Shown: piece after piece, positions 2,555 through 31,103 of the stretch
Numbering within the stretch: the stretch's first letter is position 1
Layout of the letters: every line of letters starts with the position of its first letter
Assembly: GCF_028368995.1 (NCBI RefSeq)
Contig: NZ_JAQNDL010000001.1
Location: 2,432,001-2,496,000 of the forward strand
DNA: 64,000 nt
From: Nannocystis bainbridge
Lineage (GTDB): Bacteria > Myxococcota_A > Polyangia > Nannocystales > Nannocystaceae
Direction of reading: 5' to 3'
Position numbers and translations under genes: made by a program
The notes under the pieces: generated by a model
What the model saw: only the letters and a program-made list of their open reading frames with translations
Database searches by the model: none
What the model was told of the DNA's origin: nothing

Positions 2555-3334
2555 ATGCCCACCACGCCCGTCCTGTTCGTCGGCCACGGTTCACCGATGA
2601 ACGTCATCCTCGACAATGCCTGGACGCGGTCGTTCAAGGATCTCGGAGCGGCGTTGCCGACGCCGCGGGCCATCCTCGCCATCTCGGCGCACTGGTACAC
2701 GCGCGGCACCTTCGTGACCGCCGGCGGCGACCCGCCGACGATCCACGACTTCGGCAATTTCCCCCGCCGGCTGTTCGAGATCCAGTACCCGGCCCGCGGC
2801 CACGACGAGCTCGCGCGCCGGGTCTGCGAGCTGCTGGTCGGCGACAAGGCCGCGCCGCGCAGCGACTGGGGCCTCGATCACGGGACCTGGTCCGTCCTGC
2901 ACCACATGTACCCGCGCGCCGACGTGCCGGTGGTGCAGCTCAGCATCGACCACCGGCGGCCGCCGGCCGAGCACCTGGCGATCGGTCGCGCGCTCGCGCC
3001 CCTGCGCGAGGAGGGCGTCCTGATCCTCGCCAGCGGCAACATCACGCACAACCTGCGCGCCGCCATGCAGTGGGCGCAGAGCGGCGACGGCACGCAGCAG
3101 GAGTGGGCCCTGCAATTCGACGCCGACGTGGCCCGGGCGGTCGAGCAGCATGACCACGAGTTCCTCGCCCGCGCCCCCGAGAGCCCGCTCGGGCGCCAGA
3201 ACCACCCGAGCCTCGACCACTACTTGCCGCTGCTCTACGCCGTCGGGGCCGCGCACGAGACCGAGGCCCCGCGGTTCTTCAACCCCGGCTTCGACCTCGG
3301 CTCGATCTCGATGCGCGGCGCCGTGTTCGGCTAG
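2555..3334 (+). CDS. ygiD: 4,5-DOPA extradiol dioxygenase (LigB family)
   Basis: LFVGHGSPMN, ISAHW, TIHDFGNFP, GLDHGTW, SGNITHNL and HPSLDHYLPL motifs. Confidence 0.92.
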   Translation: MPTTPVLFVGHGSPMNVILDNAWTRSFKDLGAALPTPRAILAISAHWYTRGTFVTAGGDPPTIHDFGNFPRRLFEIQYPARGHDELARRVCELLVGDKAAPRSDWGLDHGTWSVLHHMYPRADVPVVQLSIDHRRPPAEHLAIGRALAPLREEGVLILASGNITHNLRAAMQWAQSGDGTQQEWALQFDADVARAVEQHDHEFLARAPESPLGRQNHPSLDHYLPLLYAVGAAHETEAPRFFNPGFDLGSISMRGAVFG

Positions 3335-5277
3335 TCGACCCGCGCCACCTCGAGGCAGGCCGCCCGCGCGCGCTCGCGGCTGACCACGCGCTCGCGGATC
3401 GACGCCTCCACCATCGCCGCGATCCGGGTCCGCTGGGCTGGGTCGCGCGGCAGCGGCAGCACCAGCTCGCCGACGCGGTCGCCGAGCGAGTCGATGATGT
3501 CCTGCGTGAACCGCTTGGCCTCGATCTGCTTGCGCACCGGCTCCGAGCCGAGCATCGCCAGCAGCAGGTACGGCGACAGCAGCTCGGGCCGGCGCACGCG
3601 CAGCTTCAGCAGGTGGCTCTGGAACACGATGCGCGTGTCGTGCTCGGTGATGAACGCACACGTGCCGATCAGGTACGTGCCGTCGCGGACCATCAGGATG
3701 TCGCCCGCGCGCACGTCCTGCTTGGCGCGCAGCGACTCGTAGACCGCCTCGCCGACGCAGTGCTTGGGGTCGAGCTTGAGCTCCCAGTTGGAGAGATCGG
3801 AGGTGCGCACGAACGGCACGTCGCCGCCGCCGTACGCCAGCTTGCCGACCTCGTGCCCGCTGGTGATGCCGAGGATCCCGTCGTCGATCAGCTGCTGAAT
3901 CGACACCAGCTCGTGCGTGCGCTGCAGCCGGGCCAGGGTGGCCGCGACCCGCGGGTCGTAGTAGCGCGGGGCCAGCACGTTGCCGCGCACGGCCTCGGGC
4001 GCGACCGCGTGGCCGAGGCGGCTGGCCGCGGGCGGGCTGCCGGCCTCGTGCTGGCGGAACCGGTCGCCGATCTCCGGCAGCTCGTCGCGGGCGATGCTGC
4101 GGCCGCGGCTGTCCTTGCCGCACCACGCCGCCTCGGCCATGAAGATCGCCGGCCGCTCGCTCGCCGGCGCCGGCTCGCGGCGGGTCAGCAGCACCAGGCA
4201 CACCTTGGTGTGCGTGCCGCCCTTGCCCGACGTCTTGAACAGCTCCTCGGGCATGCCGATGACCGCCCGCAGATCTGCCTGTTCGAACATGTACTGAACG
4301 ACATGTCGATACGACTTGCCGGAGATCAGGCTCTCGGGCAGCACCAGGCCGACGCGGCCGCCGGGGCGGGCCAGCGCCAGCAGACGCTCGACGAACAGCA
4401 CCTGCGGCGAGACCCCGCGCTGCAGCCGGGGCGTGCGCTCCCAGCGATCGTCGGCGCCGCGCCGCCACGCGTGGCCGAGCGCGAACGTCTGCTGGACCTC
4501 GGTCGACGCCGCCACGATCTTGGCCCCGAACGGCGGGTTGGCGAGCACGACGTCGAACCCGCGCTGCTCGCACGCGATAGGTCCGCCGTCTTCGCCCTGC
4601 CAGGCCAGCGTGTCGCCGCAGTAGACCCGCGCCGGCGCCATCGTCACCAGCCCGACGTGCGCGCGCGCCAGCCCGGCCAGGTAGCGGTCCTTGTCGATCC
4701 CGACCACGCTGCGCGCCACCTCGGCCGGCGCGCCGCCGCGGGCCACCAGCCGCCGCGCCGTGTGGCTGAGGAACCCGCCGGCGCCGCAGGCCGGGTCGAT
4801 CACCCGCTCGCCGGGGCGCGGATCGACCAGGTCGACCAGCATGCGCACCGCCGTCTGCGGGGTGAAGAACTGGCCCTCGACCCCGCGCGTCGCCGACGCG
4901 GTGAACACCTCGTAGGCGTCGCCGATCGGGTCGCAGCGCGGGTCGTCGAGGTCGAGCCCGCGCAGCTCGCGGTCGACCTCGTGCAGCGTCGCCGCGTCGA
5001 GCCCGATCTGCGCGTCGGCGGCGAACACCTCGGGCATGAGCGCCTGCAGCCGCGCGAGCTGGGCCCGGTAGAACCCCAGCAGCGCGCCCGCCTCGCCCGG
5101 CGCCGCGTCGCCGCTGCGGACCGTCAGCGTCCGGCAGAACACGCAGCGCAGCACCTCGTCGAGCAGCGCCGCGTCGCGGGTCGCGCCGACCAACCGGCCG
5201 GCCAGGAAGTTGCGCAGCCGGCCGAACATGGCCCTGGTCTCAGGGACCTGCGTCGAAGGACATGTCTCTTCAAACAT
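3331..5277 (-). CDS. N6-adenine DNA methyltransferase (HsdM-like) with a C-terminal target-recognition (HsdS-like) domain; start could be 5229
   Basis: GQFFTP, IDPACGAGGFL (motif I) and LANPPFG (motif IV). The C-terminal VPFVRTSDL...VRAGDILM...LVLPLP segment resembles a TRD. Confidence 0.85.
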   Translation of the reverse strand: MFEETCPSTQVPETRAMFGRLRNFLAGRLVGATRDAALLDEVLRCVFCRTLTVRSGDAAPGEAGALLGFYRAQLARLQALMPEVFAADAQIGLDAATLHEVDRELRGLDLDDPRCDPIGDAYEVFTASATRGVEGQFFTPQTAVRMLVDLVDPRPGERVIDPACGAGGFLSHTARRLVARGGAPAEVARSVVGIDKDRYLAGLARAHVGLVTMAPARVYCGDTLAWQGEDGGPIACEQRGFDVVLANPPFGAKIVAASTEVQQTFALGHAWRRGADDRWERTPRLQRGVSPQVLFVERLLALARPGGRVGLVLPESLISGKSYRHVVQYMFEQADLRAVIGMPEELFKTSGKGGTHTKVCLVLLTRREPAPASERPAIFMAEAAWCGKDSRGRSIARDELPEIGDRFRQHEAGSPPAASRLGHAVAPEAVRGNVLAPRYYDPRVAATLARLQRTHELVSIQQLIDDGILGITSGHEVGKLAYGGGDVPFVRTSDLSNWELKLDPKHCVGEAVYESLRAKQDVRAGDILMVRDGTYLIGTCAFITEHDTRIVFQSHLLKLRVRRPELLSPYLLLAMLGSEPVRKQIEAKRFTQDIIDSLGDRVGELVLPLPRDPAQRTRIAAMVEASIRERVVSRERARAACLEVARVD

Positions 5278-5295
5278 GTGCTTTCAGTCATCCCC
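5230..5295. repeat. 14-bp-period palindrome array
   Basis: Cores at 5233, 5247, 5261, 5275 and 5289. Confidence 0.7.
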
Positions 5296-5445: not shown

Positions 5446-6285
5446 CTACTGACAGGTCAGCGGCGCGCCGTCGAAGACCGTCATGGTGCAGGTCGAGTCG
5501 GCCGCGCAGCCGCAGATCCCCGCGTAACAGGTGTCCACATTCTGTCCGCCCGCGCAGTCGCTGTCGACCGCGCAGCCGCAGCGGCCGGCCACGCACTGCA
5601 CATACCCGGGCAGCCCCGAATCGACGCAGTCCTGATCGATCTGGCACACGCACGCGCCCGACGGCACGTCGCACGCCGGGTGCCCCGTCTGCGGCACGCA
5701 GCCCTCGTCGCCCGTGCACGGGCTCTGGCACGCCCCCGCCTCGCAGCTGGCCGCCGCCTGCCCGCACACCAGCACCTCGCGCTCGCCCGCGAACAGCGGC
5801 AACATCTGCTCGACCAGCCCGAAATCGGCGCACGCGAAGGTGCCCGGGGTCAGCGCGCAGCGGCCCGCGTCGGCCACCAGCACGCACGCCTCCTCGGGCG
5901 CGCACTCGCCCGGGCCCGCGCACGGCGTCTTCCACCCCGACAGCTCGGCCAGGCACTGCGCGTCGCTGGTGCACGGCGGGAACAGGCACAGCCCGTCGAT
6001 GCAGCGGAACCCGAGGTCGCTGCCGCCGATCCGGCAGTCACGATCGCTCTCGCACTGCGACTGGCAGCGCTTGGCCTCGGGCCCCGCAGTGGTCGGCTCG
6101 CCCGTGCTGCCGGTCGTCGTCGCGCTCGTCGTCGAAGTGCTCGTCGCCGGCTCGCCGGTGGTCGGCGTCGCCGTCGACGACGACGTGGTCTGCGGCTCGC
6201 TGGCCGTCCCGGCGCCTGTCGGCGGGCACGCGGACAGGAGCCCCGCCGCGAGCCCCAGAGTTCGGATCTTGCCAGTCAACACCAT
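5446..6285 (-). CDS. Cys-rich lipoprotein
   Basis: Lipobox LLSAC, Thr/Ser-rich linker and repeated CxxDxxC modules. Confidence 0.8.
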   Translation of the reverse strand: MVLTGKIRTLGLAAGLLSACPPTGAGTASEPQTTSSSTATPTTGEPATSTSTTSATTTGSTGEPTTAGPEAKRCQSQCESDRDCRIGGSDLGFRCIDGLCLFPPCTSDAQCLAELSGWKTPCAGPGECAPEEACVLVADAGRCALTPGTFACADFGLVEQMLPLFAGEREVLVCGQAAASCEAGACQSPCTGDEGCVPQTGHPACDVPSGACVCQIDQDCVDSGLPGYVQCVAGRCGCAVDSDCAGGQNVDTCYAGICGCAADSTCTMTVFDGAPLTCQ

Positions 6286-6367
6286 GCTGCGCGACGGTAG
6301 CGCATTTTCGCCCGTGGGCGAAGAATCCCGCGCATGCGGACCGCGAGAAGTGGCACCATCGGCCGCG

Positions 6368-7015
6368 ATGGAGCGCGGTGGCCAGGTCTCGTGCCCGCAG
6401 TGCGGGGCTCCGGCCCCGTTTCGCGGCACGGCCGTCTCGCTGGTGTGCGAGCACTGCGGCAGCACCGTCGTCCGCACCGGCGTCGACGTGCGCCTGCTCG
6501 GCCGCGTCTCCTCCGTGATCGACGACGGCAGCCCGCTGCTGCTCGGCGGCAAGGGCAGCTTCGCCGGCCGCGGCTTCGAGATCGTCGGCCGCCTGCAGCT
6601 CCGCTACGCCCGCGGCGCCTGGAGCGAGTGGTACCTGCAGTTCGCCGACGGCGTCGGCTGGCTGGCCGACTTCCAGGGCAACTTCGCCATCACCGTGCCC
6701 GCCGCCGGCGCCGATTTCCCTGGCTTTTACGACATGTCCGTGGGGACATGGCATGAAGTACATGGCGCGAAGTACATGCTCGTCGACCGCCGGGCCGCCC
6801 GCTACCAGGGCGCCGAGGGCTGCCTGCCGTTCGTCGCCGAGCCCGGCCTGACCTTCTTCGCCCTCGACCTCGCCGGCCCCGACGATCAGTTCGTCAGCCT
6901 CGACTACGGCGTCGACCCCCACAACAAGCGCCCCGCCGTTTACCTCGGCCGCGCCGTCCTGCTGGCCGAGCTCGGGCTCGACCGCCTGCGCCGCTTCGAG
7001 GGCTGGCATGACTGA
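6368..7015 (+). CDS. DUF4178-like protein with an N-terminal zinc ribbon
   Basis: CPQCGAP...CEHCGS, followed by GRLQLRY..GAWSEWYL and AEGCLPF. Confidence 0.85.
   Translation: MERGGQVSCPQCGAPAPFRGTAVSLVCEHCGSTVVRTGVDVRLLGRVSSVIDDGSPLLLGGKGSFAGRGFEIVGRLQLRYARGAWSEWYLQFADGVGWLADFQGNFAITVPAAGADFPGFYDMSVGTWHEVHGAKYMLVDRRAARYQGAEGCLPFVAEPGLTFFALDLAGPDDQFVSLDYGVDPHNKRPAVYLGRAVLLAELGLDRLRRFEGWHD
6730..6781. repeat. 14-bp-period palindrome array inside a CDS
   Basis: CATG at 6733, 6747, 6761 and 6775. Confidence 0.85.
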
Positions 7016-8393
7016 AGCGACCCCCGACGTCACCCCGCGGCGCGCCGAGGCCACTCCGCAGCGGCTGTTCCGCGACGAGGCCCGCACCGAGGCCGTGCAG
7101 TGCGTGGCCTGCGGCGGCCCGCTCGCGCTGCGCGGCTTCGGGGCGATCCAGCGGGTCGTCTGCCCCGCCTGCGGCAGCACCCTGCGACCCGAGGACAGCG
7201 GCGCGCTGGCGCTGATCGACCGGGCCGCCCGCGCCCACCAGCCGTCGACGCTGCCGCTGCACGCCCGCGGCCGGCTCGACGGCGCCACCTGGGAGATCGT
7301 CGGCATCTGCTGGCGCACCGTCCTCAGCCCGCCGTGGCCGTGGCAGGAGTTCCTGCTCTACAACCCCTACCGCGGCTACCGCTACCTGGCCTGGTCGGAG
7401 CGCGACGGCCACTGGTCTTTGGGACAGGTCATCCCCGGCGCGCCGCAGATCGTCGGCGGCAAGCGCCACGTCATCGCCTACCGCGGCCGCCGCTACCGCC
7501 ACTTCGCCGGCGCCGACGCCCACGTGACCTACGCCGAGGGCGAGTTCCCGTGGCAGGTCCAGGTCGGCGACGCCGCCCACGTCGACGACTTCGTGGCCCC
7601 GCCGCACGGCATCTCGATCGAGGAGGTCGTGGCCGCCGACGGCGTCGAGCTGACCCGCACGGCCACGCGTCACCTCGACGCCGACGCGGTCTGGCGCGCC
7701 TTCGACCGCCCGGGCAAGCCGCCCAAACCGAAGGGCGTCGGCATGCTCGCGCCCAACCGCTGGCGCGAGCAGGCGCGCTCGCTGTGGCTGTCGTGCCTGG
7801 TCTTCGCGCTCGCCTGGTACGCCGCGGTCCAGCTGGTGGCCGGCCGCGCCAGCGAGCGCGAGGTGTTCCTCGCCACCGACCTGGGGTTCGACGCCGTGCT
7901 CTCGCAGGAGATCACGATCGGCGAGCCGGGCGGCCACACCACCGTCGAGGTCTCGTTCTCCGCCTACCCGCTCGACAACTCGTGGGCGTTCGCCGAGGTG
8001 GTGCTGATCCCGCTCGAGAGCGAGGAGGCGATCGGCCTCGGCCTCGAGGTCAGCAGCTACAGCGGCTTCGAGGACGGCGAGTCGTGGACCGAGAGCGAGC
8101 GCCAGGCCGACCAGGTCCTCGGCCGCGTGCCCGGCGGCCGCTACCTGCTGCAGGTCACCCCCGAGCGCGACACCAGCGCGCTGACCGGCAGCGACCCGCT
8201 CGGCATCCACCTCGGCGGCCCGTTCGGGGTCCGCAGCCCCGACACCTGGGCCCTCCGCGTGCGCGAGGACGTGTTCCTGACCCGCTACGCCGTGCTCCCG
8301 CTCCCCATCATCCTCGGCTTCCCGCTGCTCGCCTGGCTGCTCGGGCGCCGGCGCGAGCGCAAGCGCTGGGCCAACAGCGACTACCCGCTCTGA
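7008..8393 (+). CDS. DUF4178-like membrane protein with a zinc ribbon
   Basis: CVACGG...CPACGS, WQEFLLYNPYRGYRYL and AEGEFPWQV; two TM segments; C-terminal ERKRWANSD. Confidence 0.85.
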   Translation: MTEATPDVTPRRAEATPQRLFRDEARTEAVQCVACGGPLALRGFGAIQRVVCPACGSTLRPEDSGALALIDRAARAHQPSTLPLHARGRLDGATWEIVGICWRTVLSPPWPWQEFLLYNPYRGYRYLAWSERDGHWSLGQVIPGAPQIVGGKRHVIAYRGRRYRHFAGADAHVTYAEGEFPWQVQVGDAAHVDDFVAPPHGISIEEVVAADGVELTRTATRHLDADAVWRAFDRPGKPPKPKGVGMLAPNRWREQARSLWLSCLVFALAWYAAVQLVAGRASEREVFLATDLGFDAVLSQEITIGEPGGHTTVEVSFSAYPLDNSWAFAEVVLIPLESEEAIGLGLEVSSYSGFEDGESWTESERQADQVLGRVPGGRYLLQVTPERDTSALTGSDPLGIHLGGPFGVRSPDTWALRVREDVFLTRYAVLPLPIILGFPLLAWLLGRRRERKRWANSDYPL

Positions 8394-8431: not shown

Positions 8432-8469
8432 GGACATGTCTTATCGAACATGACCTCTCCGACATGCCC
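8432..8469. repeat. 14-bp-period palindrome array
   Basis: CATG at 8435, 8449 and 8463. Confidence 0.85.
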
Positions 8470-8680: not shown

Positions 8681-10219
8681 ATGTCGGCCGCGCCCGGGAC
8701 CCGCCTGCTGCTCGCCTCGGTGCTGGTGGTCGCCACCTGCGGCCTCGTCTACGAGCTGATCGCCGCGACCATGGCGAGCTACCTGCTGGGCGACAGCGTC
8801 ACCCAGTGGAGCCTCGTCATCGGCGTCTACCTCAGCGCCATGGGCCTCGGCTCGTGGCTCAGCAAGTTCGTCGTCAGGGACCTGCACGCCCGCTTCATCG
8901 CCGTCCAGCTGGTGATCGCCGTGGTCGGCGGCCTGTCGGCGGTCGCGCTGTTCTACGGCTACGCCTACCTCGCCAGCGTGCGCCCGCTGCTGTTCTCGAT
9001 CCTGGTGATCGTCGGTACCATGGTCGGGCTCGAGATCCCGCTGTTGATACGGATCGTCGGCGCCGGCGAGGAGCTGAAGGACACGGTCGCGCGGGTGCTC
9101 GCGTTCGACTACGTCGGCGCGCTGCTGGCCAGCCTGCTGTTCCCGCTGGCGCTGCTGCCCCACCTCGGCCTGGTGCGCACCAGCATGCTGTGCGGCCTGT
9201 TCAACGCCGCGGTCGCGCTGGCCTGCACCTGGGTGTTCCGCGCCCACCTGCCGCGCCCGCGCGCCGCCCTGGTCCAGGCCGCCCTGGTCTGCGCCGCGCT
9301 CGCGGCCGGCCTCGCCGTCGGCGGCCGGCTCGAGCGCCTGGCCGAGCGCGAGCTCTACGACGCCCCCGTCATCTTCTCCGAGAAGACCGCCTACCAGCGG
9401 CTCTCGATCACCCGCAGCGGCGACGACATCCGCCTCTACATCGACGGCAACCTGCAGTTCGCCAGCAGCGACGAGCACCGCTACCACGAGGCCCTGGTCC
9501 ATCCCGCCCTCGCCGGCGTCGCCCCGCGCCGGGCCCTCGTGCTCGGCGGCGGCGACGGCCTGGCCGTGCGCGAGCTGCTCAAGTACCCGGGCCTGGAGCG
9601 CATCGACCTCGTCGACCTCGATCCCGGCATGACCCGCCTGTTCGGCCGCGACCCGCTGCTGGTCCGCATCAACCGCGGCAGCCTGACCGACCCGCGCGTC
9701 CACGTGCACAACGCCGACGCCATGCGCTGGCTCGAAGGACATGTCCGCACGAACAGCGAGGTCTACGACGTCGCGGTCGTCGACCTGCCCGACCCCAACA
9801 ACTTCTCGCTCGGCAAGCTCTACACCGGCTCGTTCTACCGCCTGCTGCGCCGGGTCCTCTCGCCCGCCGGGGTCGGGGTGGTCCAGGCGACCTCGCCGTA
9901 CCTGGCGCCGCGCTCGTTCTGGTGCGTGGTCAAGACGCTCGCCGCCGCCGAGCTGCACCCGCGCCCCTACCACGCCCACGTGCCGTCGTTCGGCGACTGG
10001 GGCTTCGTGCTGGTGTCGCCGGCCCCGCGCCCCGAGCCGACCCACCTGGCCGACGTGCCGCTGCGGTTCCTCGACGACGCCCTGCTGCCGACCCTGTTCG
10101 TGTTCCCGCGCGACCAGCAGCCGCCCGACGTCGAGGCCAACCGCCTCAACGATCAGCTGCTCGTCCACTACTACGAGGAGGACCTGCGGGCCCTGCCCGG
10201 CCGCGGAGGCCGCGGATGA
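8681..10219 (+). CDS. speE: Membrane-bound polyamine aminopropyltransferase (spermidine synthase family)
   Basis: N-terminal TM bundle (CGLVYEL), then LYIDGNLQF, DEHRYHEALVHP, LVLGGGDGLAVRE, DLPDP and VPSFGDWGF. Confidence 0.9.
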   Translation: MSAAPGTRLLLASVLVVATCGLVYELIAATMASYLLGDSVTQWSLVIGVYLSAMGLGSWLSKFVVRDLHARFIAVQLVIAVVGGLSAVALFYGYAYLASVRPLLFSILVIVGTMVGLEIPLLIRIVGAGEELKDTVARVLAFDYVGALLASLLFPLALLPHLGLVRTSMLCGLFNAAVALACTWVFRAHLPRPRAALVQAALVCAALAAGLAVGGRLERLAERELYDAPVIFSEKTAYQRLSITRSGDDIRLYIDGNLQFASSDEHRYHEALVHPALAGVAPRRALVLGGGDGLAVRELLKYPGLERIDLVDLDPGMTRLFGRDPLLVRINRGSLTDPRVHVHNADAMRWLEGHVRTNSEVYDVAVVDLPDPNNFSLGKLYTGSFYRLLRRVLSPAGVGVVQATSPYLAPRSFWCVVKTLAAAELHPRPYHAHVPSFGDWGFVLVSPAPRPEPTHLADVPLRFLDDALLPTLFVFPRDQQPPDVEANRLNDQLLVHYYEEDLRALPGRGGRG

Positions 10220-10226: not shown

Positions 10227-10278
10227 GGACATGTCCTTCCGTTGCTGTCGCATGGGACATGTCCTTTATGACATGCGA
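10227..10278. repeat. 14-bp-period palindrome array
   Basis: CATG at 10230, 10258 and 10272; degenerate unit at 10244. Confidence 0.8.
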
Positions 10279-10391
10279 TCGCGGCCGCGGCGTCGCAAGT
10301 GCGCCACTACCCTGCTCGTTCGTACATGTCCCCGGAGACAGACGACCGGCCCGCGCGCTCCCGTCTCCTCGCGTCGCCCCGGGGCCCGCGC

Positions 10392-12023
10392 GTGAAGCGG
10401 CGCGGCTTCCTCGGCGCCACCGCCGGCACCCTGGCGACGGCCGCCTGCGGCCCAAGCACGCCGCCTCCGCCGGCGATCGCGTTCGTCGGCCCCGACCCCG
10501 AGCGCAGCCATCACCTGCGCGAAGGGACATGGCGCGAAGGACCTGTCCATGAGACCATTCACACCGACGTCGCCATCGTCGGCGGCGGCGTGGCCGGCAG
10601 CGCCGCCGCCTGGCGCCTGCGCCGGGCCGGCCTCGCCGATCTCCACCTGTTCGAGCTCGAGGACGAGGTCGGCGGCACCGCGCGCGGCGGCGAGCTGCCG
10701 CGCTCGCGCCACCCGCTCGGCGCCCACTACCTGCCGACCCCGCCGCCGGACTGCCCCGCGCTCGAGCGCCTGCTGACCGACCTCGGCGTCATCCTCGGCC
10801 GCGACGCGCACGGCCGACCCGAGTACGCCCCCTCGGCGATCGCCGCCGCCCCGCTCGAGCGGCATTTCGGCCGCGGCCGCTGGTACGAGGGCCTCTACCC
10901 TGCCGCCGGCGAGACCGCCGAAGAGGCCGCCCAGTGGGCCCGCTGGCACGCCCACCTGCGCGCGCTCGACGGCCGGCGCGGCGGCGACGGCAAGCCGCTG
11001 TTCGCCATCCCCGTCGCCCGCAGCAGCGCCGAGCTGCGCCACCTCGACGCCGTCTCGTTCGCGCAGCACCTCGACGAGCTCGAGCTCCGCAGCGAGCGCC
11101 TGCGCTGGGCCCTCGACTACGCCTGCCGCGACGACTACGGCTGCACCCTCGCCCAGACCTCGGCCTTCGCCGGCCTGCATCATTTCCTCGCGCGCGGCCT
11201 CGAGGAGACCCGCGGCGGCTTCCTCCTCACCTGGCCCGAGGGCAACGCGCGGCTCGTGCGCGGCATGCTCGAGCGCGCCGACCTCGGCGCTCGCCTCCAC
11301 CGCGGCGCGGCGGTCGTCGCCGTCGACCCGCACGCCGGCGAGCTCCGCGTGCACTGCCCCGGCGACGGCCGCCGCCTGCGCGTCCACGCCCGATCGATCT
11401 TGTGGGCCGCCCCCCGCTTCGTCCTCGGCCGCCTGCTCGTCGGCCCCGATCCGCTGCCTGTCGGCGCGCTGACCTACGCCCCCTGGCTGGTCGCCAGCGT
11501 CGAGGTCCGCAACGCCCCGCGAGGCGTCGGCGCTCGCCTCGCGTGGGACAACGTCCCGCTGGCCGGCTCCAGCCTCGGCTACGTCGTCGCCACCCACGGT
11601 GAGACCGCCGACGAGCGCCAGCCCGGCGCCGTGCTCACCTACTACGAGCCGCTGTGCGGCGACGGCCCCGCCGAACTCGCCGCCCAGCGTCAGCGCCTAC
11701 TCGCCGGCGATCGTTCACACTGGGCCGACCACGTCATCAGCGCGCTCGCGGCCATGCACCCCGGTATCGCCAGCGAGATCTCCGAGGTCGCCATCACGCG
11801 CTGGGGACACGCCATGATCCGCCCCGTCCCCGGCCTGCTGTTCGGCGAGAACCTCGCCCTCGCCAGCGCCCCGATCGGCCGCCTGCGCCCGTGCGCGGCC
11901 GACGTCGCCGGCCTGCCGCTGTTCGAGGAGGCCTTTTACAAGGGGAGCCGCGCCGCGCTGGCGGCCCTCGCCGACCTCGGCCGCGCCGCCCCCGACGCCC
12001 TCGCCGACGAGATTTTTATATGA
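10392..12023 (+). CDS. FAD-dependent oxidoreductase (amine oxidase-like) with a Tat lipoprotein signal
   Basis: KRRGFLG...TAAC signal, IVGGGVAG FAD motif, GAHYLP, DYACRDDYG and RWGHAM. Confidence 0.88.
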   Translation: MKRRGFLGATAGTLATAACGPSTPPPPAIAFVGPDPERSHHLREGTWREGPVHETIHTDVAIVGGGVAGSAAAWRLRRAGLADLHLFELEDEVGGTARGGELPRSRHPLGAHYLPTPPPDCPALERLLTDLGVILGRDAHGRPEYAPSAIAAAPLERHFGRGRWYEGLYPAAGETAEEAAQWARWHAHLRALDGRRGGDGKPLFAIPVARSSAELRHLDAVSFAQHLDELELRSERLRWALDYACRDDYGCTLAQTSAFAGLHHFLARGLEETRGGFLLTWPEGNARLVRGMLERADLGARLHRGAAVVAVDPHAGELRVHCPGDGRRLRVHARSILWAAPRFVLGRLLVGPDPLPVGALTYAPWLVASVEVRNAPRGVGARLAWDNVPLAGSSLGYVVATHGETADERQPGAVLTYYEPLCGDGPAELAAQRQRLLAGDRSHWADHVISALAAMHPGIASEISEVAITRWGHAMIRPVPGLLFGENLALASAPIGRLRPCAADVAGLPLFEEAFYKGSRAALAALADLGRAAPDALADEIFI

Positions 12024-12548
12024 CTCTTCGGACATGTCCATGAGGGCATGTCCGAAAGCCCACCCTGCACGTGACCATTTTAACCCTCGCCTTCGGGCGT
12101 GGGCCGTCGCGGCGCAGGCGGCCGCGGAGCTGACGTTTTGGTCGGCGACAAGCAGCGGCGTCCTCTCCGAGTTCCGGACCGCAAGCCAGGCTCTCACGCG
12201 CGCTGGCCCTTCAGACCCACCGCCGGTCGGCGCTCCCGCCGAAGCGCGTCATCCCGGCGGAGCTCCGCGCCAGCCGCCCGCCTCTCGGCTTCGTGCCACC
12301 GCCGCGGTCGAGCCGAGCTCCCATGTCTCTTCGGACATCCCCGCGATCGCCTCGCCGCGCTGCCGCCCGCCCGCTCTGCGAAACTATTTTGAGAAAAACA
12401 TGTCCCGAGGGACATGTTCTGCGCCGGGACCGCTGCCCTGGGCACAAACGGCCGCAGCGCGCGCCCCCCGTCCGCGTCTGTCGATCCCGACAGCTCCTGA
12501 GCGGTCTTGCCCGTCCCTGCGCGCCCGCGGCCGCGCTATCCTCCTCGT

Positions 12549-13130
12549 GTGCCGCTGTCGCTCGCGCAGCTCGAGGCGCTCTCGCAACAGGCCTTCCCGA
12601 CCCAGGCCGTCGCGCGGCGTGACCCTGATGGTTACGCCGCCCTCCACGCCGCGATCGCCGAGGCTATCCTTCCGGTCGCGCGCGCGCTCGAGTTCGACAT
12701 GGACGACTTCGTCGCTCGCAGTCAGGACGAGCTGCTCGCCCTCCCGCCGCACATCCTGTTCGTGTGGTGCGACGAGGCCGACCTCATGGCCTCGTTCTAC
12801 GCCCTGCCCGAGGCCGACATCGCCGCCAACGTCGCCCAGGCCCTGCACGCCGTCGCCGGCCTGCGCTTCGGCGACCCCGCCCAGCTGCCCTCCGAGCAGC
12901 GCGGCGCGGTCCTCCGGATCATGGCCGCGATCGGCACTCCGCTGGCCCGCGACGCCGACGACTTCTTCGCCGCCTACGTCGACGGCGCCGCCCACGACCC
13001 CGAGCTCCCGGTCCGCGCCGAGGTCGAGGCCCTGTTCGACCAGTTCGCCCCCTGCTTCGTGCCCGACGCCGACGGCCTCGATCGCCGCTTCACCCGCGTG
13101 ATCGCCGTCCACCGCCACATCGACGCCTAG
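12549..13130 (+). CDS. Hypothetical acidic helical protein
   Basis: Typical codon bias; GTG start 6 nt after TATCCT. Confidence 0.7.
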   Translation: MPLSLAQLEALSQQAFPTQAVARRDPDGYAALHAAIAEAILPVARALEFDMDDFVARSQDELLALPPHILFVWCDEADLMASFYALPEADIAANVAQALHAVAGLRFGDPAQLPSEQRGAVLRIMAAIGTPLARDADDFFAAYVDGAAHDPELPVRAEVEALFDQFAPCFVPDADGLDRRFTRVIAVHRHIDA

Positions 13131-13179
13131 CATGTCTCCGAGGACATTTTTCTAGGGGCATGTCCCAAAGGACAGCCAG
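13128..13179. repeat. 14-bp-period palindrome array at a convergent junction
   Basis: Cores at 13131, 13145, 13159 and 13173. Confidence 0.8.
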
Positions 13180-13242: not shown

Positions 13243-14142
13243 TCAGCCCGCGCGCCCCACCACCTCGCGGATCGCCGCCACCAACGCCTCGGGCACCTCC
13301 TCCTGTAAAAAGTGCCCGGCCGCGGTTCGCCGCACGCTCGCGCCCGGGAACGCCCGCTCGTGGCGGGCCAGCGCGCGACCGAGGATCGGGTCGCGCTCGC
13401 CCCATACCAGCGCCAGCGGCCCTCCGGCGGCCGTGAAACCGCGCAGCCACGCTTCACCGCGCCGCAGCGGCGGGACGCTCGGGTGCTCCAGACCATCCGG
13501 GACCATGCGCGCCAGCGCCAGAGGACCTGCCCTTTCGGACAGATTCCGCAGCGGCCAGCGGTAGGCCCGGGCCACTGGCCCCCAGATCGATCGCCGATCG
13601 CCCTGCGCCACCCAGAGCGTCGACTGCGGGAACCCGAGGCCGCGAAACACCAGATCGCTGATCACCGGCACCCGCGCGAACCGGTGAAACCACGTCCCGC
13701 GCGGCCGCGACGGCAGCACCACCGACGTGTTGCCCAGCACCACGCCGGCCACGCGCTCGGGCATGTGAGCGGCCAGCGCCACTCCCAGCGCGCCGCCCCA
13801 GTCCTGACCGACCAGCACGAAGCGGCGCAGCCCCAGCGTCTCCACCAGCTCCGTCAGCGCCGCCACGTGTCGCTCGACCGAGTGCTCGTGCAGCGCGATC
13901 CGGCTCGAGAGGCCGAACCCGAGCAGGTCGGGCGCGACGCAGCGCAGCCCCGAGAGCCCCGCGATCACGTCGCGCCACAGGAAGCTCCAGGTCGGGTTGC
14001 CGTGGAGCAGGAGCACCACCGGCGCTGCGGGGTCGCCGTGGTCGATGCGGTGGATCCGGCACCCGTCTCGCAGCGCGCTCACGCTCCGCCGCAGCGGCAA
14101 CAGGGCAGCGAGCCACGCCGGCAACTCGGGGACGTCGAACAT
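13243..14142 (-). CDS. Alpha/beta hydrolase, haloalkane dehalogenase-like
   Basis: LLHGNPTWSFLWR, APDLLGFGLS, GQDWGG nucleophile elbow and AGHFLQEE. Confidence 0.9.
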   Translation of the reverse strand: MFDVPELPAWLAALLPLRRSVSALRDGCRIHRIDHGDPAAPVVLLLHGNPTWSFLWRDVIAGLSGLRCVAPDLLGFGLSSRIALHEHSVERHVAALTELVETLGLRRFVLVGQDWGGALGVALAAHMPERVAGVVLGNTSVVLPSRPRGTWFHRFARVPVISDLVFRGLGFPQSTLWVAQGDRRSIWGPVARAYRWPLRNLSERAGPLALARMVPDGLEHPSVPPLRRGEAWLRGFTAAGGPLALVWGERDPILGRALARHERAFPGASVRRTAAGHFLQEEVPEALVAAIREVVGRAG

Positions 14143-19769: not shown

Positions 19770-22100
19770 TCAGGGCGCCGAGAAATCGATGCTCTGCAGC
19801 GAGTCTTCGAGCTCGATCTTCTTCTCGAGCCGCTTCGACTGCAGCTCGACGATCGTGCGCGCGAGCTTGTCGGCGTCGCGCGTGAATTCGTCGAGGCGCT
19901 TGTTCAACTTGCCGCGCAGATCGCCGGCCGCGCCGTCCTTTTTGATCGCCTCGAGGTTCTGTCGGGTCTCGTTCGCGCGCTGATCGAGCTCGGCTTTTTG
20001 GCGGGTGAGCCCGTCGATCTCGGTGTCGATGCGGCCGATCTCCTGGCGCAGGCGGCCCAGCGGCTCGAGCTTCTTGCGCGCGTTCGCGTCGAGGTTCGGC
20101 ACCCGCAGCAGCGATTCGAACAGCTGCGGCACGCGCGTGTCCCAGATCGAGATCGTCGTCTGCGACGGCGTCTGCTCGACCACCTCGACCTTGCCCTCGA
20201 CCGCGTTGCCGGTGACCTTGACCGGCACGAGGTAGGCGTCGGGCAGCTCCTCGAGCCCCTCGATCTTCGACTTGAGCGCGTAGGGCCCGCCCTGCTTCGG
20301 GTGGCGGATCAGCACCGAGTAGCCCTTCGGGTCCGGCTGGCCCTTCACCGTCCACGTCGTCGCCACCCGCTGGAAGTTCTCGACCGAGATCAGCCCGCGC
20401 ACGATCTTGACGATGCGCAGCTCGTCGCCGGTGTACTGCGCCTGCGACGACACCAGCAGCGACGGCTCGACCGCGAACGGGATCGTCGTGCTCGTCTGCG
20501 TCCCGACCGCCTCCGACAGGCCCTCGCCGACGAAGCTGCCGCCGGCGTAGATCGCGATCGGCCCCGGCTCGAGCACGAACGGGGTGGTGTTCTTGAAGCG
20601 GACCACGCGGTACGGGTTCTGCTCGTAGCCGGTGCCGGCGCCGCCCGGACGGAACAGGAACGTCTGCTCGGCCGCCACGTCCTGGTTGACGATCGCCACC
20701 ATCGTCGAGCTGCCGTCGGGCACCGTCACGCGGTCGCGCAGGTCGAAGCGCGTCAGCCCGCTGACGCTCTTGGCCCGCGCGCTCGCCTGCGTGCTGCGGC
20801 GCAGCGACTCGAGGTCCATCGCCGGCGCCTCGGCCTTCTCGACCTCGTCGTAGGCGACGTCGGGGGCCGGCTCGAAGTCGTAGCTGGGGCCGCTCGCGGC
20901 GCGGCCGCCTCCGCCGATGCTGTTCGGCCGCTGCTCCGCGCGCTTCGCCGATTTCTTGAGGTCGTCCGCCTTCTCTCGCATCGCGGGCGCCGGCGGCGGG
21001 GCCGGAGGCGGCAGGCTGCGGGCCGGGACGGCGTCGGGGCAGCCGTCCTCGTCGGTGTAGCCGTTGAACGTCTCCGGGCTGTCGGGGCACTTGTCGAGCC
21101 CGTCGGGGATCGCGTCGCCGTCGCGATCACTTCCGGCGTCGTACGAGGTCTCGCCCATCGCCACCGCGGCCCGCTTCTGCACCCCCGCCTCGGTGAGGTC
21201 GGTGCGGCCCACGGTGCGCGGCGTGTGCAGGTCGTAGCGGAACGCGATCGGTGCGCCCGAGGTCAGGCTCATCGACACCTTGCCCCAATCCTCGCCGCTG
21301 GTGTTGTCGACCACCGCCCACGCCTGCAGCAGCGCCGGGCCCTTCTCGCCCGGCTCGGGCAGGACCACCCGGTAGGTCGGCTTCCACATCGGCGCCGCCA
21401 CCACGTAGCTGACCAGCAGGTCGTGGCTGCTCGCGCCCGCGAGGCGGATCTCGACCGCGACCTGCTGGAACATCCCCTCGCCCGCGGTGGCGTCGAGCGT
21501 GCGGTGGAACTGCAGCGCCAGGTCGCCGTCCTGCAGCGTCACCCCGCGCACCTTCGACAGCCGCACCACCTGCAGCTGCTTGCCGTCGAGCAGCGAGACC
21601 TTGAAGTCGCGCGCCCCGCCCTGCGGCGCCGGCACCCGCTCCGACGACGGCGGCGGCGTCGGGTCCGGCTCGTCGATCACCGCCTCGACCAGGACGATGC
21701 GCCCGCGCAGCTTGCCCTGCGTGGTCTTCAGCGTCACGTAGGTGCCGCGCAGCGCGTCGAGCACCTGCGCCAGCGAACCTTGCCCCGGGGCCAGGGTCGA
21801 CAGCGCGGCGTTGGCCCACGACTCGGGGTCGAGCGGCATCGACACGCTGACTGCCTGCCCGCTCTTGCGGTCGACCACGGTCAGGCTCTTGAGCAGGTCG
21901 TTGATCTGGTCCTTGCGGACCTTGATCACCAGCGCCTCGCCCTTGACCTCGCCGCGGCGCTCGAAATAACCGATGCCGTTGCGATAGAGCACCACGCGGT
22001 CGAGCCCCAGCGAGCTCTCGGTGGCGGCGTAAGGGTTGCGGCCGTGGGCGCAACCGATGAAGAGGAGGGCGACGAGGGCGGACGGGGCGAGCCTGGGCAC
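19770..22100 (-). CDS. DUF4139-like lipoprotein with a thrombospondin type-3-like insert and a C-terminal coiled coil
   Basis: Lipobox FIGC, VVLYRNGIGYFER, INDLLKSL, WKPTYR, WAVVDNTSGEDW and DRDGDAIPD..DKCPD. Confidence 0.8.
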   Translation of the reverse strand: MPRLAPSALVALLFIGCAHGRNPYAATESSLGLDRVVLYRNGIGYFERRGEVKGEALVIKVRKDQINDLLKSLTVVDRKSGQAVSVSMPLDPESWANAALSTLAPGQGSLAQVLDALRGTYVTLKTTQGKLRGRIVLVEAVIDEPDPTPPPSSERVPAPQGGARDFKVSLLDGKQLQVVRLSKVRGVTLQDGDLALQFHRTLDATAGEGMFQQVAVEIRLAGASSHDLLVSYVVAAPMWKPTYRVVLPEPGEKGPALLQAWAVVDNTSGEDWGKVSMSLTSGAPIAFRYDLHTPRTVGRTDLTEAGVQKRAAVAMGETSYDAGSDRDGDAIPDGLDKCPDSPETFNGYTDEDGCPDAVPARSLPPPAPPPAPAMREKADDLKKSAKRAEQRPNSIGGGGRAASGPSYDFEPAPDVAYDEVEKAEAPAMDLESLRRSTQASARAKSVSGLTRFDLRDRVTVPDGSSTMVAIVNQDVAAEQTFLFRPGGAGTGYEQNPYRVVRFKNTTPFVLEPGPIAIYAGGSFVGEGLSEAVGTQTSTTIPFAVEPSLLVSSQAQYTGDELRIVKIVRGLISVENFQRVATTWTVKGQPDPKGYSVLIRHPKQGGPYALKSKIEGLEELPDAYLVPVKVTGNAVEGKVEVVEQTPSQTTISIWDTRVPQLFESLLRVPNLDANARKKLEPLGRLRQEIGRIDTEIDGLTRQKAELDQRANETRQNLEAIKKDGAAGDLRGKLNKRLDEFTRDADKLARTIVELQSKRLEKKIELEDSLQSIDFSAP

Positions 22101-22276
22101 GTGCGAGGGATCTCCTGCGAGGTCGACTGTAACGCCGCGAGCCCACGCCCTCTTACTCGCACGCGCGCCCGCCAAACCCCGCCGGAGGCGCGTCTTCGGC
22201 CGCTGCGCGGTTTTGCCCGCGCGGGCCGCCCCAAATGCCGCCAGGCGGTCGCACGCGGCGCCTATGGACGCCTTGA

Positions 22277-23304
<1,028 letters not shown>

Positions 23305-23310
<6 letters not shown>

Positions 23311-24297
23311 GTTCGACCCGCTCACTCCGCGCCGCACCGCCAGGACCCGCTGTCGGGCCTGTACCCGCCGATCGACCCGTTCCACTTCGGCCGGCTGCAG
23401 GTCCCGGGCGGGCACGACCTCTACTTCGAGCAGTCGGGCAACCGCGCCGGCAAGCCGGTGGTGTTCCTGCACGGCGGGCCCGGCGGCGGCACCGACCCCA
23501 AGCACCGGCGCTTCTTCGACCCGGCGCGCTACCGCATCATCCTGTTCGACCAGCGCGGCTGCGGCCAGAGCGAGCCGTTCGCCTCGCTCGAGGACAACAC
23601 CACCTGGGACCTGGTCGACGACATCGAGCGCCTGCGCGAGCACCTCGGCGTCGACCGCTGGCAGGTGTTCGGCGGCTCGTGGGGCAGCACGCTCGGGGTC
23701 GCCTACGCCGAGGCCCACCCGCACCGCGTCACCGAGCTGGTCCTGCGCGGGATCTTCATGTTCACCCGCCGCGAGTCCGATTGGTTCTACGGCCGCGGCA
23801 CCCGCAACCTGTTCCCCGACGCCTGGGAGGCCTTCGTCGCCCCGATCCCCGAGGCCGAGCGCGCCGACCTGATCGCCGCCTACTACCGCCGCCTCACCTC
23901 GAACGACCCGCGCGTCCGCGTCGAGGCCGCGCGCGCGTGGAGCCTGTGGGAGAGCCGCGTCGCCGCCCTGCACCCCGACCCCGACGTCGAGATGCACTGC
24001 GACAACACCGACTTCACCCTCGCCTTCTCGCGCATCGAGTGCCACTACTTCGTCAACAAGGGTTTTCTGAACAGCGAGACCCAGCTGCTGGACGACGCGC
24101 CGAAGATCCAGCACATCCCGACGACGATCGTGCACGGCCGCTACGACGTGATCTGCCCGCTCGAGAACGCGTGGCACCTGCACAAGCGGCTGCCCCGCTC
24201 GGAGCTGGTGATCGTGCCCGACGCCGGCCACTCGGCCTTCGAGCCCGGCATCGCCCTCAGCCTGCGTCGCGCCACCGACCGCTACTCCCAGCTGTGA
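23305..24297 (+). CDS. pip: Proline iminopeptidase (second tandem paralog)
   Basis: Same catalytic motifs as the upstream copy; ATG at 23305. Confidence 0.93.
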
Positions 24298-24319
24298 GGC
24301 CGGGCCGGGGCGGTGCGTC

Positions 24320-24385
24320 CCTCATGTCCGAGAGGACATGCCCCGTGCGCCATGCCCTTGGGGGCATGCCCCTTCGGTCATGTCC
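24320..24385. repeat. 14-bp-period palindrome array at a convergent junction
   Basis: CATG at 24323, 24337, 24351, 24365 and 24379. Confidence 0.92.
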
Positions 24386-24391
24386 TCCGGG

Positions 24392-25606: not shown

Positions 25607-25608
25607 CC

Positions 25609-26619
25609 CTACTTCCGCGTCCCCGTCAGCCACTCCGCCGCCTGGCGCGCGAAGTAGGTCAAGATCACGTCGGCGCCGGCGCGGCGGATGCCGAGCAGGC
25701 TCTCGAGCACCACCCGCTTCTCGTCGAGCCAGCCGCGCTCGCTCGCCGCCTTGAGCATCGCGTACTCGCCGCTGACCTGGTAGGCCGCGAGCGGCAGGCT
25801 GGTCGCGCGGCGCAGCTCGGCGAGGATGTCGAGGTACGGCCCGGCCGGCTTGACCATCAGCATGTCGGCGCCCTCGACCTCGTCGAGCTCCGCCTCGCGC
25901 AGCGCCTCGCGGGCGTTGGCGGGGTCCATCTGATACGTCTTCTTGTCGCCGCTCTTGGGCGCCGAGTCGAGCGCGTCGCGGAACGGCCCGTAGAACGCCG
26001 AGGCGTACTTGGCCGTGTAGGCGAGGATCGACACGTCGATGAAGTCCTCGCCGTCGAGCGCCTCGCGCAGCGCCTGCACGCGGCCGTCCATCATGTCCGA
26101 CGGCGCGACGATGTCCGCGCCGGCGCGGGCCTGGCACAGCGCCTGCTCGCACAGCGCCGCCACCGTCTCGTCGTTGAGGATGCGCCCGTCGGGCGCGACG
26201 ATCCCGTCGTGGCCGTCGCTGTTGTACGGGTCGAGCGCGACGTCGGTGACGATCACCAGGTCGGGCCAGCGGTCCTTCAGCGCCTTGATCGTCTCCGGGA
26301 TGAGGCCGTTCGGGTTCCACGCCTCGCGGCCGTCGGAGGTCTTGAGCGACTCCACCACCGCCGGGAACAGGGCGATGAGGTTGACCCCGACCGCGCGCGC
26401 CGCCTCGACCTCGGCCAGCAGCCCGCGGCGCGACAGCCGGGCGCACCCGGGCATCGACGCGATCGGCACGTCGTCGGCGCCGGCGTGGATGAACAGCGGG
26501 TAGATGAAGTGCTCCGGCCCCAGCGTGGTCTCGCGCAGGAACGCCCGGATCGCCGGGTGCTTGCGGTTGCGTCGCGGGCGCTGCAGCAGGTTGAGCGGGT
26601 CTCGGCGGCCTAACGTCAT
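25609..26619 (-). CDS. hemB: Porphobilinogen synthase
   Basis: RPRRNR, DVALDPYNSDGHDG, APSDMMDGRV, KYASAFYGPFRDA and AYQVSGEYAM. Confidence 0.97.
   Translation of the reverse strand: MTLGRRDPLNLLQRPRRNRKHPAIRAFLRETTLGPEHFIYPLFIHAGADDVPIASMPGCARLSRRGLLAEVEAARAVGVNLIALFPAVVESLKTSDGREAWNPNGLIPETIKALKDRWPDLVIVTDVALDPYNSDGHDGIVAPDGRILNDETVAALCEQALCQARAGADIVAPSDMMDGRVQALREALDGEDFIDVSILAYTAKYASAFYGPFRDALDSAPKSGDKKTYQMDPANAREALREAELDEVEGADMLMVKPAGPYLDILAELRRATSLPLAAYQVSGEYAMLKAASERGWLDEKRVVLESLLGIRRAGADVILTYFARQAAEWLTGTRK

Positions 26620-29823: not shown

Positions 29824-31103
<1,280 letters not shown>

Follow-up and report, generated by a model that had tools for sequence, protein, structure and literature searches.

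The array at 6730–6781 and its host gene

The window analyzed here, a 64,000-nucleotide stretch of the Nannocystis bainbridge genome (contig NZ_JAQNDL010000001.1, positions 2,432,001 to 2,496,000), contains at 6730–6781 of its forward strand a 52-bp array of four CATG-containing units, located inside a gene for a DUF4178 protein. The host gene lies within the open reading frame (ORF) 5714–7015. Its likely true coding sequence (CDS) is 6368–7015 on the forward strand, with a likely start at 6368 (MERGGQ...), and the Pfam DUF4178 match spans this CDS (E = 1.2e-8). The next gene, 7008–8393 on the same strand, is also a DUF4178 gene and overlaps the 3′ end of the host gene, and the two genes probably form one operon. 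Orthologues of the host gene were found in 15 of the 31 genomes searched.

An earlier note on this stretch, called the original prediction below and made from the letters alone, had described the array as a DNA-level code overprinted on protein-coding sequence. The letters that it quoted were borne out: the array reads CGACATGTCC gtgg GGACATGGCA tgaa GTACATGGCG cgaa GTACATGCTC, with ACATG starting at 6732, 6746, 6760 and 6774, which corresponds to three exact 14-bp steps. The array is in the frame of ORF 5714–7015, translation from 6728 gives YDMSVGTWHEVHGAKYML, and the protein sequence of the array is DMSVGTWHEVHGAKYM. When both strands of the window were searched, ACATG-N9-ACATG had 21 matches compared to a mean of 0.00 in 100 shuffles.

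The codons that had been named as rare are rare in the genome, as ACA accounts for 1.7% of Thr, CAT for 7.6% of His, GAA for 6.4% of Glu and GTA for 0.6% of Val codons. Codons ending in A or T made up 5 of the 18 codons within the array compared to 9 of the 197 in the remaining gene, and 7 of the 18 array codons were invariant at the amino-acid level compared to 151 of the 197 elsewhere. In terms of retention, 17 of 25 A/T third bases were kept in the array versus 19 of 45 in the rest of the gene. All six large Nannocystis genomes keep the array, and the rare ACA codon is present in all six and in the more distant G004 (G000 is the genome containing the window; other G numbers are comparison genomes). 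The predicted RNA fold of 6722–6790 was no better than that of shuffled sequences (z = -0.96).

Orthologue alignment of the DUF4178 array

Alignment with orthologues from genomes lacking the arrays had been proposed as a means of distinguishing substitution in place from insertion of a mobile unit. A codon alignment was made of 14 orthologues from 14 genomes, with identities down to 53%. The array columns were without indels in 13 of the 14, and the sole indel was a 5-codon insertion adjoining the array in the most distant orthologue. Of the 4 CATG, 3 or 4 were kept in each of the remaining large genomes (five, at 83–87% protein identity), and the G004 orthologue (62% identity) had 2 of the 4, namely those in Thr-Trp (ACA-TGG) and Tyr-Met (TAC-ATG). 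The eight orthologues at no more than 57% identity, all from array-poor relatives, had zero phased pairs and carried other residues and codons.

Because there is no indel, and because the array-poor orthologues carry other residues and no phased pair, the array must have grown in place beside two pre-existing units, with changes from Asp-Leu to Asp/Asn-Met and from Ile-Gln-Gly to Val-His-Gly. Substitution without indels is the outcome that the original prediction had assigned to selection in situ. The opposite outcome, array-free orthologues with the same codons, was not observed, as the array-poor relatives differ in both codons and amino acids. The proposal that a nucleic-acid-level signal biases codons, and residues as well, holds at this locus, where the codons are rare, the residues are altered and the length is unchanged.

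A genome-wide family of phased arrays

In G000 (11.05 Mb in 5 contigs, 71.5% G+C), the distances between CATG sites peaked at 14, 28, 42 and 56 bp (3736, 2073, 1586 and 751 pairs, respectively) over a background of approximately 100, and the spectrum had no shoulder at 13 or 15 bp. Chaining CATG sites at 14-bp steps defined 2074 arrays with 6616 units, the longest of which spans 20 registers. The consensus unit is GGACATGTCC, and the family unit consists of 10 bp followed by 4 bp of spacer with no fixed sequence. When all 4-mers were scanned independently of CATG, the words with the highest 14-bp periodicity were ACAT, ATGT, CATG, GACA and TGTC. The elementary module is a dyad, ACATGTCC-N4-GGACATGT, with the spacer at its centre, because the 2-unit arrays conserve the inner CC...GG and the ACATGT cores while the outer GG and CC hold just 0.1–0.4 bit.

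The longest array (G000 C3:1237915-1238185) has 16 CATG across its 20 registers, follows several consecutive genes on one strand, and is richer in A+T and more degenerate than typical arrays. Units with CCTG or CAGG cores (GGACAGGnCC / GGnCCTGnCC) share the 14-bp register with CATG units, for example at 42349–42400 and 30938–30975 of the window. The G003 array orthologous to window positions 47495–47560 has CCTG/CAGG cores exclusively, and the array-poor G009 has a CAGG-core array in an Lhr linker. The family may be older and wider than the CATG counts show. Among the papers listed in the literature searches, none described the motif or such arrays in Nannocystis, and those listed for the consensus 10-mer dealt with p53 or were unrelated.

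Location of the arrays relative to genes

Genes were called from position-specific G+C, using our own caller based on G+C at third codon positions (GC3), which gave 8145 genes covering 82% of the genome. By context, 769 of the 2074 arrays were located between convergent genes, 726 between tandem genes, 365 inside genes and 155 between divergent genes, and 59 overlapped a gene end. For arrays with at least four CATG the corresponding counts were 371 convergent, 194 tandem, 23 inside genes and 14 divergent. Convergent gaps total 304 kb and hold the 769 arrays, whereas divergent gaps total 586 kb and hold 155, a tenfold difference in density. In tandem gaps, the median array starts 42 bp past the upstream stop and ends 196 bp ahead of the next start. 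The largest arrays occupy convergent gaps from stop to stop; gaps filled nearly in this manner in G000 are C3:1487047-1487205, C4:434622-434766, C1:638598-638728 and C3:1934687-1934803.

Under a stringent coding test, which required an open frame with coding signal on both flanks, 226 of the 2074 arrays were embedded in genes, compared to 3442 of 6222 random placements, and just 12 of the 607 arrays with at least four CATG were so embedded. The context counts, the stop-proximal medians and the small number of embedded arrays identify the family as a 3′-end feature, of which the DUF4178 array is a rare in-gene member.

Arrays inside genes

In 7.1 Mb of confidently coding DNA there were 314 CATG pairs at 14 bp and 112 at 28 bp, compared to 8–21 pairs at other distances that are not multiples of 3. 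The 2.0 Mb of intergenic DNA held 3148 pairs at 14 bp. These counts correspond to 44 phased pairs per Mb in coding and 1572 per Mb in intergenic DNA, so that in-gene pairs are approximately 20-fold above chance and approximately 36-fold rarer per base than pairs between genes. A frequency of in-gene phased pairs at the chance level would have overturned the original prediction, and the observed frequency is far above it. The overprinting that the original prediction described is real at this locus; as a description of the family it needs qualifying, as the arrays are chiefly 3′-intergenic and far denser per base between genes.

A total of 281 in-gene arrays, 67 of them with at least three CATG, showed no bias towards gene ends. 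Codons ending in A or T reached 35.5% in these arrays versus 4.3% genome-wide. The CATG of in-gene arrays were distributed over the Met, His and Cys/Trp frames as 281, 255 and 123, while other coding CATG in the same frames numbered 17160, 1237 and 541. The predicted cycling through DMS, T-C or T-W, and GHV occurs genome-wide. The feature is one of nucleic acid and not a protein repeat, since the motif passes through all three frames. In registers of in-gene arrays that lack CATG, the core was CCTG or CAGG in 41 of 79. Such a core turns Thr-Cys or Thr-Trp into Thr-Gly, and therefore the protein constrains the motif in one of the three frames. The median distance to other arrays was 2437 bp for in-gene arrays and 2502 bp for random coding positions (p = 0.85). 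Spacing compensation was rejected, as in-gene arrays do not fill gaps between intergenic arrays.

To the DUF4178 array were added 12 further in-gene arrays, nearly all with at least four CATG, which were compared with the array-rich G010 and G003 and the array-poor G009, G013 and G011. No indel was found for the arrays in a Mur ligase, a YkuD-domain protein and a ketoacyl-synthase-like protein; the changes in the YkuD array include synonymous CAC to CAT and GAG to GAA as well as Ala to Thr with ACA. Two arrays, in an ECF sigma extension and in the symporter-family gene at 49939, were without indels among close relatives only and were counted as ambiguous. The arrays in CarA, the DnaE PHP domain, an ABC ATPase, IucA/IucC, two Lhr helicases and a kinase-sigma54 activator were located in lineage-specific insertions in linkers or loops. 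The tally for the 13 arrays, DUF4178 included, was 4 without indels, 2 ambiguous and 7 insertions, and both routes, substitution in place and in-frame insertion, exist. The view of in-gene arrays as overprints stands for the 4 of 13 that arose without indels and fails for the 7 that are lineage-specific insertions.

In the two paralogous Lhr helicases (G000 C1:1406233-1406278, L052, and C1:2590521-2590580, L053), the array lies in the same DEAD/Helicase_C linker, in both cases within a lineage-specific insertion. In the CarA linker insertion (G000 C4:601636-601695, L070), units 4–5 are a near-exact repeat of units 1–2 at a 42-nt in-frame offset. This repeat was seen in G000 and not in G010 or G003, and it points to a probable recent unit conversion or duplication within the array.

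Synonymous-site bias, another check that had been proposed, was evaluated against a background of 4-fold sites from 39 window genes, whose divergence from congeners was 14.5–18.6%. At these background sites, A or T in G000 was also A or T in 71 of 219 cases in G010 and 75 of 213 in G003. Synonymous A/T third bases in the 13 in-gene arrays were kept in 40 of 55 (G010) and 36 of 45 (G003) cases. Because this retention is approximately twice the background, the DNA of in-gene arrays may be under constraint. Many in-gene CATG have been lost or changed to CAGG or CCTG between congeners. In the array at 49939–49990, G010 retains 1 of the 3 phased CATG and G003 none, and the CATG-retention tally covered just 2 of these 3 CATG.

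Distribution among genomes and turnover

Three in-register CATG occurred 1005–1670 times per genome in six Nannocystis genomes of 11–13 Mb, 2–62 times in five other genomes of the same genus (64–88% complete), and 0–4 times in 20 genomes from outside the genus, compared to 0–2 for a control with the pattern reversed. The abundance of the family is thus limited to one clade. With 1670 such matches, G000 has approximately 1.5 times the 1005–1162 of the other five large genomes and is the smallest of the six, and several in-gene CATG are specific to it. In G013, which belongs to another genus of the same family, there were four triple-phased matches (for example C29:466289-466320) with motif-like units and A+T-rich spacers, and these suggest that a low ancestral level of arrays may have existed outside the genus.

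Turnover was compared using 80-kb syntenic regions from five congeners, with genes approximately 90% identical in nucleotides to those of the window. At 5 of 6 intergenic sites, arrays were present in all five congeners; at the sixth they were present in four, and the anchors failed in G001. Species differ in the number of units, in the spacers and in many of the units, but not in the 14-bp register. Among the 1670 32-mers that contain three CATG, 1646 were distinct and 12 were common to different arrays. The sharing of 18-mers was 573, compared to 534 ± 15 after shuffling of halves and spacers. Arrays from separate loci are therefore not copies of each other, and a copy-and-paste element was rejected on the near-absence of multi-unit words common to arrays. 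A search for the Y1 transposase of the repetitive extragenic palindrome (REP)-associated tyrosine transposase (RAYT) type (PF01797) found none in any of the genus's 11 genomes (80–91% completeness for the six large ones), while the same search was positive in 6 of 14 controls. The REP-RAYT model was rejected on this result.

Hairpins, terminators and binding sites

The intergenic arrays fold into predicted stems of 10–13 bp with 4-nt loops (z = -2.5 to -6.8). Fold stability per nucleotide was -0.39 to -0.48 kcal/mol for intergenic arrays compared to -0.32 to -0.34 kcal/mol for in-gene arrays. In-gene arrays are unlikely to be terminators, because they fold no better than shuffled sequences and more weakly on average than intergenic arrays. 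In terms of the canonical intrinsic terminator, in which a GC-rich hairpin is followed by a U-tract, the hairpins form and the T-run is missing: no T-run was present in the array flanks, which hold 0.1–0.3 bit. A scan of 22001–42000 for canonical hairpin-plus-T terminators found 3, compared to 4.7 expected, none of which were at arrays.

Hairpin selection alone fails to explain the conserved sequence, because the complementarity of adjacent units is barely above that of random unit pairs. Column-wise mutual information between adjacent units was at most 0.09 bit. On the sense strand G:U pairs numbered 562 versus 345 for A:C, which a transcription-linked mutation bias could explain equally well. 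A model of pure hairpin selection was rejected because covariation of adjacent units is weak; the G:U excess is not decisive. The conserved sequence and the exact register would rather call for sequence-specific recognition on top of any hairpin.

Methylases of the D12 class, which we take to be the class of CATG adenine methylases, were found in 25 of the 31 genomes, both with and without arrays. This was the methylase class examined; its presence does not track array abundance, and its specificity cannot be read from sequence. A search of promoter-side arrays for a self-regulated binding protein gave 14 candidates, most of them in long gaps that possibly hide uncalled genes.

Comparison with known repeat families

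The arrays had been likened to uptake sequences and to the highly iterated palindrome HIP1. This is reasonable as an analogy; an uptake bias, a cognate methylase or a repair drive would be hypothetical in Nannocystis. The coding copies of uptake sequences are described as lying at poorly conserved positions and skewing peptide content, with 35–65% of the copies of uptake signal sequences (USS) and DNA uptake sequences (DUS) in ORFs (PMC2817400), and inverted DUS pairs after genes are described as acting as terminators (PMC2397512). The Nannocystis arrays resemble DUS and USS in that thousands of copies of a short motif are limited to one clade, each in a unique context, and in that coding copies arise in place at poorly conserved positions, although this applies to the 4 of 13 arrays without indels and not to the 7 insertions. 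They differ in that the motif is palindromic and forms strict 14-bp arrays of up to 20 units, is approximately 36-fold denser between genes than within them, and uses rare instead of preferred codons when in genes. Homologues of the competence proteins ComEC and DprA are present in G000, but they are also present in 10 and 11 of 14 control genomes, respectively, and are only permissive.

REP elements have been reported as 3′UTR terminators and mRNA stabilizers (bioRxiv 10.64898/2026.03.23.713779), and their units have a family-wide sequence with a GTAG or CGTC head (PMC3733652). As in REPs and bacterial interspersed mosaic elements (BIMEs), palindromic units in Nannocystis are clustered after stops and between convergent genes. 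The REP unit, however, is approximately 35 bp long, has a family-wide sequence and is tied to a RAYT, while the Nannocystis unit is 10 bp with a free 4-bp spacer; neither a shared family-wide unit of approximately 20–40 bp nor a RAYT was found here.

HIP1 sites have been proposed to arise in place through a repair drive that depends on methylation (PMC4390886). Both motifs are over-represented GC-rich palindromes within and between genes. HIP1 is spread alike over coding and non-coding DNA, without phased tandem arrays or 3′ bias, unlike the 44 versus 1572 pairs per Mb and the strict 14-bp register seen here, and it has cognate orphan methylases, whereas the D12 class occurs here regardless of arrays. 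Finally, Rickettsia palindromic elements (RPEs) are palindromic repeats translated within ordinary proteins and tolerated in loops and linkers (PMC3184786). The 7 of 13 in-gene arrays that are linker or loop insertions are similar to these. RPEs, however, are elements of 105–146 bp inserted as units, while the array at 6730–6781 and three others are without indels.

Interpretation of the in-gene array

The 52-bp feature is a translated, four-unit member of a genus-wide phased family whose home is the 3′ side of transcription units. On balance, we lean towards reading the arrays as two-way 3′-end elements and the in-gene copies as spill-over. The family is at home above all in the convergent gaps, where arrays would act as sequence-specific elements in both directions, possibly as RNA or DNA hairpins, as phased sites for a clade-specific dimeric or oligomeric factor, or as both. 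In-gene arrays would be the rare spill-over of a process that adds and keeps units. Part of them may have entered as in-frame insertions into linkers and loops, and others, the DUF4178 array among them, grew in place by point substitutions. In these, CATG units were added in register beside codons (Met ATG, Thr-Trp ACA-TGG, His CAT) with which the motif was already partly supplied. The growth took place in a poorly conserved stretch of the protein, and its price was the use of rare codons and a change of residues. That the process works at the level of DNA or RNA, and not of protein, is shown by the frame cycling, the rare codons and the origin without indels. A factor that reads the motif and has a role in 3′-end formation is favoured because of the exact register and the tenfold higher density in convergent than in divergent gaps, and in-gene arrays are more readily seen as tolerated by-products than as useful elements because of their random placement and their decay between congeners.

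Several observations weigh against this reading. We infer both the 3′-end function and the existence of a reading factor, and the gene boundaries on which the position counts depend come from our own GC3-based caller. The folding of in-gene arrays does not exceed that of shuffled sequences (z = -0.96 and -1.47), complementarity between adjacent units is 4.61 of 10 positions compared to 4.12 for random unit pairs, and the strict 14-bp step is left unexplained by a pure hairpin model. Retention of the CATG of in-gene arrays amounted to 33/53 and 30/53, not clearly above the neutral expectation. The higher retention of A/T third bases compares an array count that mixes 2-fold and 4-fold sites with a background of 4-fold sites only, in a small sample of related congeners. 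G000 is the one genome analyzed whole, and the congeners are not independent samples.

A possible, though doubtful, explanation is that the arrays result from a molecular drive without cellular function, in which motif-favouring uptake or recombination of the DUS/USS kind, or methyl-directed repair of the very-short-patch type as for HIP1, adds units in place while no element is copied. The accumulation at 3′ ends would then reflect the least constrained DNA, where pairs of units double as hairpins. Reader selection and a drive through biased uptake, repair or recombination both predict growth in place. The units that arose by substitution in conserved-length coding segments (DUF4178, Mur ligase, YkuD, ketoacyl-synthase-like) fit such a drive, as do arrays that are not copies of each other, the steep rise in copy number in one clade, the random placement of in-gene arrays relative to other arrays (p = 0.85) and their position at poorly conserved residues (7/18 versus 151/197 invariant codons for DUF4178). 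The published parallels are the uptake sequences at poorly conserved coding positions (PMC2817400), the DUS-pair terminators (PMC2397512) and the HIP1 repair drive (PMC4390886). A drive on a single short motif, however, would not explain why as many as 20 units keep to an exact 14-bp register, and the tenfold gap between convergent and divergent density exceeds what relaxed constraint alone suggests. The presence of ComEC and DprA homologues is in line with a drive, but both are widespread (10/14 and 11/14 control genomes) and hence uninformative, and D12-class methylases occur in 25 of 31 genomes irrespective of arrays. It is unlikely, in our view, that the two mechanisms are joined in a clade-specific machine that reads the 10-bp palindrome in its 14-bp register and helps to write it; this would be a filament-forming or ring-like nucleic-acid-binding factor, marking transcription-unit ends bidirectionally and coupled to a biased repair or recombination making units in place out of adjacent sequence, with the DUF4178, Mur ligase and YkuD arrays as its footprints in conserved coding DNA.

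We consider it improbable that the in-gene array has a local job of its own, be it as an attenuator or pause site ahead of the downstream DUF4178 gene, as a binding site in a long transcription unit, or as a run of translation-slowing rare codons. Its persistence in all six large genomes, with the ACA codon in 6/6 and in G004, and the retention of A/T third bases (17/25 versus 19/45 elsewhere in the gene) would agree with such a job, and folding could profit from slow translation at the inter-domain linkers that hold several in-gene arrays. Yet the sample is a small one from related species, the predicted fold of the stretch is not better than that of shuffled sequence (z = -0.96), in-gene arrays are neither farther from other arrays than random coding positions nor biased towards gene ends, and many of their CATG were lost or replaced by CAGG or CCTG between congeners. 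Insertion as a small mobile palindromic element, in the manner of REP/BIME-RAYT or of the Rickettsia RPE, is highly improbable. REP elements have a similar location at gene 3′ ends, in-frame fusion of repeats into genes has been described (PMC3184786, citing Ogata 2000), and 7 of the 13 in-gene arrays are in lineage-specific linker or loop insertions, but these could equally be local unit expansions; the DUF4178 locus has no indel relative to orthologues down to 53% identity, which contradicts a mobile element there, no multi-unit sequence is common to the family, and PF01797 was not found in 11/11 genus genomes searched but was found in 6/14 controls. Hardly any credence can be given to chance or to a protein-level repeat, with the 14-base spacing of Met, His and Trp codons as a coincidence. 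The more distant G004 orthologue already has two of the four CATG (Thr-Trp and Tyr-Met), and two follow from common codons given the residues; however, the shuffle expectation for a phased ACATG pair in the window is 0.00, the 314 coding pairs at 14 bp stand against 8–21 at neighbouring distances, the array needs ACA, CAT and GTA, which are used at 1.7%, 7.6% and 0.6%, and a 14-base period is impossible as a peptide period.

REP, DUS/USS and HIP1 are common in bacteria, and the origin and persistence of iterated short motifs are still debated. The unusual features of the Nannocystis family are its exact 14-bp register, its non-copy members and the multi-unit arrays built by substitution in coding sequence of conserved length. 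The family offers a clean system in which to ask whether selection for binding or mutational drive is the maker of a motif, with constraints that can be read codon by codon; the depletion of the Cys/Trp frame and the replacement by CAGG show that the protein pushes back against the DNA signal. Should the arrays be the main 3′-end signals of a high-GC myxobacterium without U-tract terminators, this would matter for the engineering of natural-product gene clusters.

Other arrays and genes in the window

The original prediction had listed five further in-gene examples, and its gene labels hold (N6 DNA methylase, NAD-binding oxidase-like, Ser/Thr kinase-STAND, SPFH/Band 7 and Na:Ala symporter family). 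Two of the examples stand as arrays. In the methylase gene 3331–5277 there is a clean two-unit pair at 4285–4308 (reverse strand), and the symporter-family gene 49643–51943 has 3 CATG in 4 registers at 49939–49990 (forward strand), in a loop of variable length. The other three are weak or degenerate: the example at 10511 has the cores CATG, CCTG and CATT, the one at 18031 has one CATG unit and one degenerate unit, and the one at 30938 has CAGG-type units and zero CATG. The symporter-family gene as called also contains a two-unit pair at 50269–50292 (forward strand), which failed the stringent coding test.

Five-unit arrays are located in three convergent gaps. The array at 24320–24385 fills the gap 24297–24392 (RNA fold z = -2.5 on the forward and -4.3 on the reverse strand), and those at 37921–37986 (gap 37899–37996; z = -6.3 and -6.8) and 47495–47560 (gap 47436–47584; z = -3.9 and -5.9) are similar. 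Two-unit arrays lie in the convergent gaps 42349–42446 (at 42407–42430, preceded by CCTG/CAGG-core units in the same 14-bp register) and 53698–53835 (at 53726–53749, present in 4 of 5 congeners, with the anchors failing in the fifth), and a further array at 13128–13165 lies between the convergent genes 12507–13130 and 13243–14142. Behind stops, a three-unit array at 8432–8469 begins 39 bp past the end of gene 7008–8393, an array with 3 CATG in 4 registers at 10227–10278 starts 8 bp past the stop of gene 8681–10219, and a two-unit array at 12030–12053 immediately follows the stop of gene 10299–12023. Another two-unit array, at 12396–12419, is intergenic, and one at 5258–5281 is located at the called start of the methylase gene, on its divergent side.

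The degenerate stretch in the oxidase-like ORF 10299–12023 occupies three registers at 10524–10562 (forward strand), in the N-terminal region. The start of this ORF (10299) is well upstream of the automatic gene call, and window positions 10299–10420 encode what we take to be a twin-arginine-like signal and a lipobox-like Cys (RRGFLGATAGTLATAAC); the product is probably an exported lipoprotein. Two DNA methylase genes with an in-gene array were noted, one being the N6_Mtase/Eco57I-like gene at 3331–5277 on the reverse strand of the window and the other an N6_N4_Mtase gene at G000 C2:488020-490326 (locus L058).

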